Below, in pieces: positions 9,788 to 10,212 of a DNA stretch of 64,000 nucleotides. A program made the translations under genes and the position numbers. The notes under the pieces were generated by a model. That model saw nothing but the letters and a program-made list of their open reading frames with translations, had not been told where the DNA came from and did not search any database. How positions within the stretch are numbered: position 1 is the stretch's first letter; each line of letters starts with the position of its first letter. The stretch covers positions 28,148,001-28,212,000 of the forward strand of contig CM097887.1 in assembly GCA_044892525.1 (NCBI GenBank), read 5' to 3'. Source of the DNA: Schmidtea polychroa. Lineage: Eukaryota.

Positions 9788-10212
9788 TGTTTTATGACTC
9801 ATTCTCAAAATATTATAGTAAAGTAAAGGCATTATGAGATGGTGTAACTTTGGCAAAGGAAATTACCTTTACTTTACTATATATATTTTATGGACTCCCA
9901 CGCAGTCAATCTTTTTCCGGTGTGCTCTTTTTTATGAACTTGGGAAAAGGGGGTGTGGGGGGGGGGCATATATATCTTAATATAAACCATGGTTTATAAT
10001 TATGCACGCCATGGCGTGCTGTAGATATATATGCCCCCCCCCCACACCCCCTTTTCCCAAGTTCATAAAAAAGAGCACACCGGAAAAAGATTGACTGCGT
10101 GGGAGTCCATAAAATATATATAGTAAAGTAAAGGTAATTTCCTTTGCCAAAGTTACACCATCTCATAATGCCTTTACTTTACTATAATATTTTGAGAATG
10201 AGTCATAAAACA
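9788..10212. repeat. 425-bp ITR-hairpin-ITR palindrome (head-to-tail junction), genotype C
   Basis: Arms 9788-9977 and 10023-10212 read as exact reverse complements. The 45-nt centre holds tataaaCCATGGtttata and gcacgCCATGGcgtgc. Confidence 0.95.

Follow-up and report, generated by a model that had tools for sequence, protein, structure and literature searches.

A tail-to-head joint, probably of two hairpin ends, from a PEVE-related DNA virus integrated in Schmidtea polychroa

Introduction

How does a perfect inverted repeat with arms of 190 bp come to stand in a chromosome of Schmidtea polychroa, and what kind of replicating DNA left it there? The structure, 425 bp in all, lies in a stretch of 64,000 nucleotides (NCBI GenBank assembly GCA_044892525.1, contig CM097887.1, positions 28,148,001 to 28,212,000) that was analysed as a whole; this stretch is called the window here, and all positions are counted from its first letter. 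A sequence-only reading had described the structure as an ITR-hairpin-ITR junction with parvovirus-type termini that are resolved by a CRESS-type Rep. The analysis reported here shows that it is a genuine tail-to-head joint, probably of two hairpin ends, in a small integrated DNA virus. The wider reading that we prefer, to which we give a probability of roughly 0.6, is that the joint comes from a hairpin-ended ssDNA virus of the PEVE/PIVE lineage with a Rep-driven hairpin cycle, and that it was captured in the chromosome.

Results

The 425-bp joint between a capsid end and a helicase start

The left, capsid-side ITR arm (9788-9977, plus strand) and the right, helicase-side ITR arm (10023-10212, minus strand) are each 190 bp long and are complementary at 190/190 positions, with pairing ending at both outer ends. 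They enclose an asymmetric, T-shaped centre of 45 nt (9978-10022), referred to below as H5, which is not self-complementary (10/45 matches against its own reverse complement). This centre holds two palindromes, an AT-rich one of 18 nt (9981-9998) and a GC-rich one of 16 nt (10004-10019), both with CCATGG in the middle. With arms that pair throughout around an asymmetric 45-nt centre, the ITR-hairpin-ITR description was found to be correct. When the top of the hairpin (9950-10050) was folded, a T was obtained on both strands (z = -10.2 and -11.3) and 0/200 shuffles gave an equal fold, in agreement with the proposed T shape with twin CCATGG arms. The palindromes had also been called loop-less, and this holds at the level of the sequence, but the fold requires loops of 4 nt (CATG). 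Chance was gauged by Markov simulation of bases 1-21000, and in 30/30 simulated sequences the perfect inverted repeats reached 13-16 bp at most. Once the junction had been masked, the best one remaining in the window was 30 bp long and was found between two of the hairpins described below.

The two flanks of H5 are unlike each other, with the end of a capsid gene on one side and the start of a helicase gene on the other, where the ATG follows 31 nt beyond the right arm. The inner boundary of the left arm recurs in the arms that begin at 3398 and 4331. A fold-back artefact is unlikely, since the mirror halts at an ITR boundary that is common to other copies and the flanks differ; it is also countered by four other arm variants, 79-89% identical, that adjoin the same gene ends. 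The head-to-tail layout of ITR, hairpin and ITR matches the TRT joint of AAV as presented in PMC11575299, which supports the earlier comparison with a double-D junction. Reads shorter than one arm would leave the orientation of the H5 centre ambiguous. Two further hairpins, H1 and H2, whose partner stems measure 26 and 45 bp, are free of this problem.

Seven hairpins with two orientations of the centre

Seven hairpins were found in the window, where three had been noted before, and all of them have the same 22-nt spacing of the CCATGG motifs. Five are independent (H1 to H5, H1 to H4 being on the plus strand) and two lie inside a 4,070-bp duplication. H1 (3398-3653, centre 3582-3627) consists of a capsid-side arm, a T with the GC arm first and the 26-bp partner stem, after which the sequence jumps into capsid sequence. 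H2 (4331-4607, centre 4518-4562) has a capsid-side arm, a T with the AT arm first and the 45-bp partner stem, which contains 1 mismatch. H3 (4640-4864, centre ~4817-4864) has a capsid-side arm and is GC-first, with gypsy sequence joined just past the AT arm; it counts as capsid-side because it retains a remnant of the untranslated region that follows the capsid gene, and its hairpin part is repeated at 12966-13029. In H4 (6697-6921, centre ~6697-6740), gypsy sequence is joined inside the AT arm and is followed by the GC arm and a helicase-side ITR, the whole being repeated at 14864-15087. The possibility that H3 and H4 are the halves of one joint split by gypsy was rejected, since their arm order is mirrored and not continued. 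An ITR stands 3′ of the capsid end in 3/3 capsid copies and 5′ of the helicase start in 2/2 copies that keep the start.

The arm order proceeds as previously read, GC-first in H1 and AT-first in H2 and H5. The H1 centre aligned to the reverse complement of the H2 and H5 centres with a score of 34, compared with 2 and 1.5 on the same strand, and the centres of H1 and H3 match those of H2, H4 and H5 as reverse complements and not on the same strand. The capsid-side centres are thereby divided into two that are GC-first (H1 and H3) and two that are AT-first (H2 and H5). The two orientations had been interpreted as flip/flop isomers. Both orientations do exist, but they are found in different variants and are not isomers of one molecule: the arms are 79-89% identical across the hairpins and each of the four capsid-side hairpins is a different variant, so flip/flop is not established within one lineage. 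We regard flip/flop of the centre as likely, and recombination between inverted arms would likewise invert the centre. Within 25 bp of the T, the differences in the left arm between variants are matched in the partner arm in 3/3, 8/8 and 8/8 cases. This complete covariation of the stems near the T shows that each arm was copied from its partner.

Conserved elements within the ITR

When the five arm variants were aligned, 97 of the 190 arm positions were invariant. An inner inverted repeat (9814-9881) folds into a 16-bp stem, formed by 9814-9829 and 9866-9881, and carries tandem GTAAA units. Such an inner repeat, with 12-20 bp, was present in 6/6 arms examined and coincides with invariant blocks in the five-arm alignment; judged by its sequence, it is a candidate for Rep-binding iterons or for a promoter. 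Three short blocks on the plus strand (9896-9902, 9918-9923 and 9938-9943) are invariant in 5/5 arm variants. The last of these, about 35 nt from the T, is a candidate resolution site that may resemble the one of AAV. The five-arm alignment of the ITRs gave these conserved candidate blocks alone and no nick site, and the partner stems break off after 26 bp in H1 and 45 bp in H2, lengths that indicate no shared resolution site.

A NANTATTAC-type nonanucleotide gave nine pattern matches in bases 1-21000 and none in any ITR or hairpin, a search that a divergent nonamer could escape. A classification of the element among the typical circular CRESS viruses was rejected, the ITRs and hairpins of bases 1-21000 being without a NANTATTAC-type stem-loop origin. 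An Rfam scan of bases 1-21000 gave 0 matches, and a scan for bacterial promoters and terminators, irrelevant to a eukaryotic virus, remained at chance level. Most ITRs have TGA(C/G)TCA, which we take to be AP-1-like, at their inner end or immediately next to it (9795-9801, 10199-10205, 3351, 3405, 4338 and 6926). After the capsid gene of variant A, the inner ITR end is tandemly duplicated (54 bp, 3343-3448).

A CRESS-type Rep with a predicted intron and a separate helicase

The Rep gene is on the minus strand. Exon 1 (11932-12492) encodes a basic N-terminal tail, motif I (12064-12078) and an HUH-type motif II (11944-11952), and exon 2 (11088-11873) encodes motif III (11766-11777), Walker A (11457-11480), Walker B, motif C and the Arg finger. 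They are separated by a predicted GT-AG intron of 58 nt (11874-11931, minus strand; phase judged from the coordinates), and the donor and acceptor contexts of this intron are conserved in variant B. Exon 1 matched Viral_Rep in Pfam at E 0.04, motifs I-III and the SF3 motifs align with CRESS Reps, and the protein combines HUH and SF3 domains, as in Cressdnaviricota. The best named match among 40 hits was the PEVE type 1 Rep (E 1.1e-30, 30% identity over 90%). In a tree of 40 rows, with two short hits (<190 aa) left out, the Reps of the window and the PEVE Rep fell into supported sets of 8 and 11 rows (95/89 and 100/99). A model of a full-length Rep homologue was obtained with a pLDDT of 77. Its nuclease domain resembled the nanovirus Rep (TM 0.80) and the circovirus Rep (TM 0.69); the top match in the PDB by E-value was AAV Rep68, with a TM of 0.27, and the top named matches in BFVD were CRESS Reps, with PEVE type 2 among them. 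A sequence search of the PDB with exon 2 returned unrelated P-loop matches alone.

Exon 2 shows a dN far below dS between variants, that is, purifying selection. The catalytic motifs are intact in the Rep of variant C, and the Rep of variant B is in several pieces. This Rep is the only HUH endonuclease gene found, and tblastn with the element's own proteins found no further helicase or Rep relative in the window. The motifs and the placement in the PEVE clade bear out its designation as a CRESS-type Rep. Since it is the only HUH gene found, we infer that it cuts the hairpin.

The second enzyme is an SF3 helicase of 222 aa (10244-10912, plus strand) with an open reading frame; it is without a nuclease domain and resembles AAV Rep40. 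It matched Parvo_NS1 in Pfam (E 1.9e-14) and AAV Rep40 in the PDB (E 2e-4), and the three nearest end-to-end homologues among 325 hits were 222-244 aa long and themselves scored best with PPV_E1_C. A word-index homologue search with 144 candidates returned none at E <= 0.001. The helicase of variant B has a stop at codon 151. In 3/3 variants, the helicase and Rep genes are arranged tail to tail, about 175 bp apart, without an intervening ITR.

Two small reading frames accompany these genes on the minus strand. An ORF of ~190-200 aa (11922-12527) is overprinted on Rep exon 1 and is 46% identical over 170 aa to its copy in variant B (16661-17326, minus strand); it had no Pfam match, and its conserved Cys/His cluster may possibly bind zinc. 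The other small ORF (12551-12805, ~84 aa) is 62% identical to a copy near 153-350. Its start codon and that of VP1 diverge and are about 15 nt apart (12805-12821, and also ~350-365), a spacing that leaves no room for a promoter, so the transcripts would have to overlap or be spliced from further away.

A probable capsid with a PLA2-like motif

The start of VP1, with a PLA2-like motif, was found at 12821-12965 (plus strand), where it is broken off at ~12965, and in a second copy at 365-508. The motif matched Phospholip_A2_4 in Pfam at E 5e-4, below the curated cut-off. In 2/2 copies the VP1 start abuts the small ORF without an ITR. The two copies belong to two variants and are cut at nearly the same homologous position (~507 and ~12965), with different partners. 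The 3′ part of the capsid gene of variant C (8870-9760, plus strand; 5′ part absent) stops 27 nt short of the ITR and is 73% identical in amino acids to the copy at 1983-3299; an AATAAA-type signal stands in the gap before the ITR. The longest capsid copy, that of variant A (1880-3302, plus strand), has a Gly-rich N-terminus and the capsid body in another frame, with a frame break near 1980-2030.

In the Atlas comparison, the variant A capsid had its first neighbour at 0.96 and fell to Cossaviricota capsid clusters, with a recognition score below the threshold, and the top three matches in the PDB were 60-chain capsids at E 0.03-0.09. The capsid body had no Pfam match, a word-index homologue search with 923 candidates gave none at E <= 0.001, and the full capsid ORF retrieved no capsid from the PDB, only a single chance match to a ribosomal protein. 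A fold prediction from a 3-row alignment was unusable (pLDDT 28). Each single signal is weak, and on the sequence matches a capsid with PLA2 is probable. The PLA2 start and the capsid body are not joined without a break in any copy of the window, and the single genome was therefore inferred from overlaps. These give the gene order ITR, helicase (+), Rep (-), small ORF (-), VP1/capsid (+), ITR, and the non-redundant parts sum to at least ~4.7 kb; the linear ssDNA of Parvoviridae measures about 4-6 kb.

A mosaic of virus variants within a gypsy element

At least three virus variants in a single orientation, mixed with a gypsy element, make up the mosaic of bases 1 to ~17,300. Between variants, dN was 0.05-0.20 and dS was 0.7-2.0 or saturated for the helicase, Rep exon 2 and the capsid. 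With dN this far below dS, the variants must have diverged as working viruses, under selection, before they integrated. The viral pieces interrupt the gypsy pol gene, of which an RT/RNase H fragment (4864-6697, plus strand; Pfam RVT_1 and RT_RNaseH) is repeated at ~13030-14863. A viral piece of 2,434 bp (14864-17297) is found between RT/RNase H and the integrase core (~17300-18234, plus strand; Pfam rve), and, to judge by the integrase motifs, gypsy presumably lacks a short stretch at this piece. Hairpin and gypsy meet twice, each time at the AT arm and with the GC arm as the innermost one; about 5 nt at one joint and 8 nt at the other are shared with the viral sequence. The viral and gypsy pieces of 1-18234 all have the same orientation, as in a concatemer; we assume that this uniform orientation also fits a uni-strand piRNA cluster.

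The sequence at 12966-17035 (plus strand) is a 4,070-bp duplicate of 4801-8869 that differs by 2 substitutions and 1 single-base indel (99.9% identity). The duplication begins in a G-run of the ITR stem. Its two copies flank a 4,096-bp segment of variant C (8870-12965), which is circularly permuted and has H5 in its middle. The repeat may be a real duplication with an insertion, or an unmerged haplotype.

Discussion

Relatives of the element

The element is a relative of PEVE from Girardia tigrina and PIVE from Schmidtea mediterranea (Repbase, 2008), and thus of a known but poorly described kind. Since 2002, PEVE has stood in the databases as a curiosity; the paper of that year is said to describe an element of ~7.5 kb with two helicases and two unique regions that have inverted repeats on their flanks. 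In the consulted part of Liu et al. (PMC3198968), PEVE and PIVE are each given a Rep and a parvovirus-type helicase, and terminal inverted repeats are named in a figure legend. PEVE is described there as an extrachromosomal element whose Rep and helicase genes occupy different segments, and PIVE as integrated and numerous, with PIVE_3p grouping with the PEVE Rep and PIVE_1p with the small-segment protein of PEVE. The Rep of the element falls into one supported clade with that of PEVE (30% identity), and both elements have a second, stand-alone SF3 helicase of parvovirus/papillomavirus type (Parvo_NS1/PPV_E1_C) and inverted repeats that bound the coding regions, the repeats of PEVE being judged by the figure legend. 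In contrast to PEVE, the element is integrated and has Rep and helicase adjacent to each other in all three variants; because they are not on separate segments, we file it as a relative of PEVE and not as PEVE proper. With PIVE, which is known here by description alone, it has in common the integration and a Rep and helicase of these groupings, and it may be PIVE itself or a sister. In the literature searched, which had the original PEVE paper and Repbase outside its scope, we found neither PEVE nor PIVE described as having T-shaped or flip/flop ends, and no mention of a PLA2 or capsid for PEVE or of a hairpin, capsid or intron for PIVE; within the same scope the terminal anatomy and the gene combination of the element were not found described.

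In AAV, circles and concatemers contain a head-to-tail TRT (double-D) joint, and flip and flop are defined for these ends in the consulted part of PMC11575299. The joint described here likewise runs tail to head through a single T hairpin with an inverted flank on either side, two orientations of the centre occur, and the helicase is related to Rep40. The differences are that the arm alone is 190 bp long, compared with 145 nt for the whole ITR in AAV, that both T arms have the core CCATGG, that the nuclease belongs to a CRESS Rep, which has a helicase of its own, and is not fused to the NS1-type helicase, and that the gene order is ambisense and divergent. By analogy, the element would work like AAV at its ends, yet it is not a parvovirus. 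Parvoviridae were rejected because no NS1 nuclease is fused to the SF3 helicase, which here is a protein of 222 aa that starts 31 nt past the ITR, with the HUH motifs in the separate CRESS Rep.

Linear CRESS viruses are already a known kind. The Oomyviridae (order Lineavirales) are presented in the consulted parts of PMC12451638 and PMC13426907 as having linear ssDNA, a CRESS Rep, a PLA2-containing capsid and likely stramenopile hosts. As parvovirus-like hybrid viruses they set the precedent for the combination of a CRESS Rep and a PLA2 capsid. A second, NS1-type helicase and T-shaped flip/flop ends were not found mentioned for Oomyviridae in the parts of the literature searched, and the context and named relatives of the element point to an animal host.

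Competing explanations

The alternative that survives best, although we give it a clearly smaller share than the preferred reading, is that the virus was circular and that the 425-bp structure is one internal rolling-circle origin, with a long stem and a T top, for the CRESS Rep. The centre would then be inverted by recombination or template switching between the arms, and hairpin ends would never exist. A circular genome would agree with the CRESS type of the Rep and with the circular permutation of 8870-12965 (4,096 bp), which has one joint in the middle of the segment, but not with ITRs that are without a nonanucleotide loop. Both host joints at hairpins sit at the tip, which also speaks against it, and parvovirus traits are seen in the T top with its pair of short palindromes, in PLA2 and poly-Gly and in the NS1-type helicase. 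The literature, as far as consulted, cuts both ways: AAV itself is able to use TRT circles for rolling-circle replication (PMC11575299), whereas terminal inverted repeats are drawn for parvovirus-like elements and PEVE (Liu et al., PMC3198968).

We consider it improbable that the genome was built in the style of PEVE, with two unique regions between inverted repeats, so that the joint would be an internal link between segments and not a tail-to-head joint. In the part of PMC3198968 consulted, PEVE has a large segment with Rep and a small segment with the helicase, and no copy in the window connects the VP1 start to the capsid body unbroken. However, the tail-to-tail arrangement of helicase and Rep across ~175 bp in all three variants leaves no ITR between them, and neither does the contact between the VP1 start and the small ORF in both copies.

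A nuclease supplied in trans is still less probable. According to this explanation, the NS1/Rep nuclease of a true parvovirus resolves the ends, which would leave the CRESS Rep as a passenger or with a role in some other step; parvovirus-like ends and capsid, and ITRs in which no nick site was identified, would suit such a helper. The purifying selection on Rep exon 2 and the intact catalytic motifs of copy C argue against a passenger, and tblastn found no other relative of the helicase or Rep in the 64-kb window.

An artefact of assembly or library, either a fold-back chimera or polishing that equalised the arms, is just as improbable, for although the arms are 100% identical, a 4-kb duplication of 99.9% identity is nearby and N gaps occur elsewhere in the window, the mirror stops at a natural ITR boundary found in other copies, the flanks differ around an asymmetric centre, the other arm variants differ by 11-21% and are uncollapsed, and H1 and H2 have the same T with their own covarying stems.

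A proposed life cycle

In the hairpin cycle that we prefer, each end of the genome would consist of an ITR of ~190 nt and the T hairpin, which would serve as the physical end. The hairpin would prime the host polymerase, and the spliced CRESS-type Rep would bind the GTAAA units of the ITR and nick the stem. Copying would then invert the centre (flip/flop) and keep the two arms identical. In AAV, Rep40/52 act as the packaging motor, and by analogy the nuclease-less NS1-type helicase could be the packaging motor for a PLA2/poly-Gly capsid of parvovirus type. The ends would recombine via their ITRs into joints of the TRT/double-D kind. The integrated joint would have come from a circle or a head-to-tail concatemer that was opened within the capsid gene, and fragments may have entered gypsy by microhomology-mediated joining, twice at hairpin tips.

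A bolder and doubtful extension is that PEVE/PIVE-like elements are an unclassified family of animal viruses with a parvovirus chassis, made up of T-hairpin ITRs, a PLA2 capsid and an NS1-type helicase, in which the NS1 nuclease was replaced by a whole CRESS Rep that drives rolling-hairpin replication. If so, nicking and packaging would be split between two unrelated SF3 proteins. The integrated ITRs could also be landing sites for Rep, which would explain the 3-5 variants in one gypsy element as well as a 4-kb duplication that starts inside the ITR stem. If a CRESS Rep does resolve AAV-like T hairpins, rolling-circle and rolling-hairpin initiators would be interchangeable modules; this would bear on the origin of parvoviruses from circular Rep-encoding ancestors and would give an animal example alongside Oomyviridae. 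From this locus the terminal structure is known in five naturally occurring variants that share conserved blocks, together with a probable PLA2 capsid and a predicted Rep intron, and thereby the nick site and the replication mode become directly testable.

The surrounding sequence

The flanks of the viral locus are AT-rich (GC 0.29) and contain eukaryotic DNA transposons, and the intron predicted in Rep is of the spliceosomal type. Judged by the relatives of the element, a planarian host is plausible. Downstream of the gypsy integrase, ORFs at 18449-20881 had no convincing Pfam match. One of the ORFs in this part (19575-20354, no Pfam match) has an acidic motif that to us is reminiscent of DEDD exonucleases. 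Further ORFs in the host flank correspond to DUF659 (23372-24637), a DDE_1 transposase (28003-28992) and a C2H2 zinc-finger protein (30855-31190). Direct repeats of 381 bp (99%) at 50508-53396 surround a fragment of a DDE_Tnp_1_7 transposase (51957-52361). At 56298-58989, imperfect inverted repeats of 52 nt enclose an ORF of 752 aa (56533-58791, minus strand) whose neighbours in the Atlas comparison were eukaryotic proteins at 0.98, and this unit is probably a DNA transposon.
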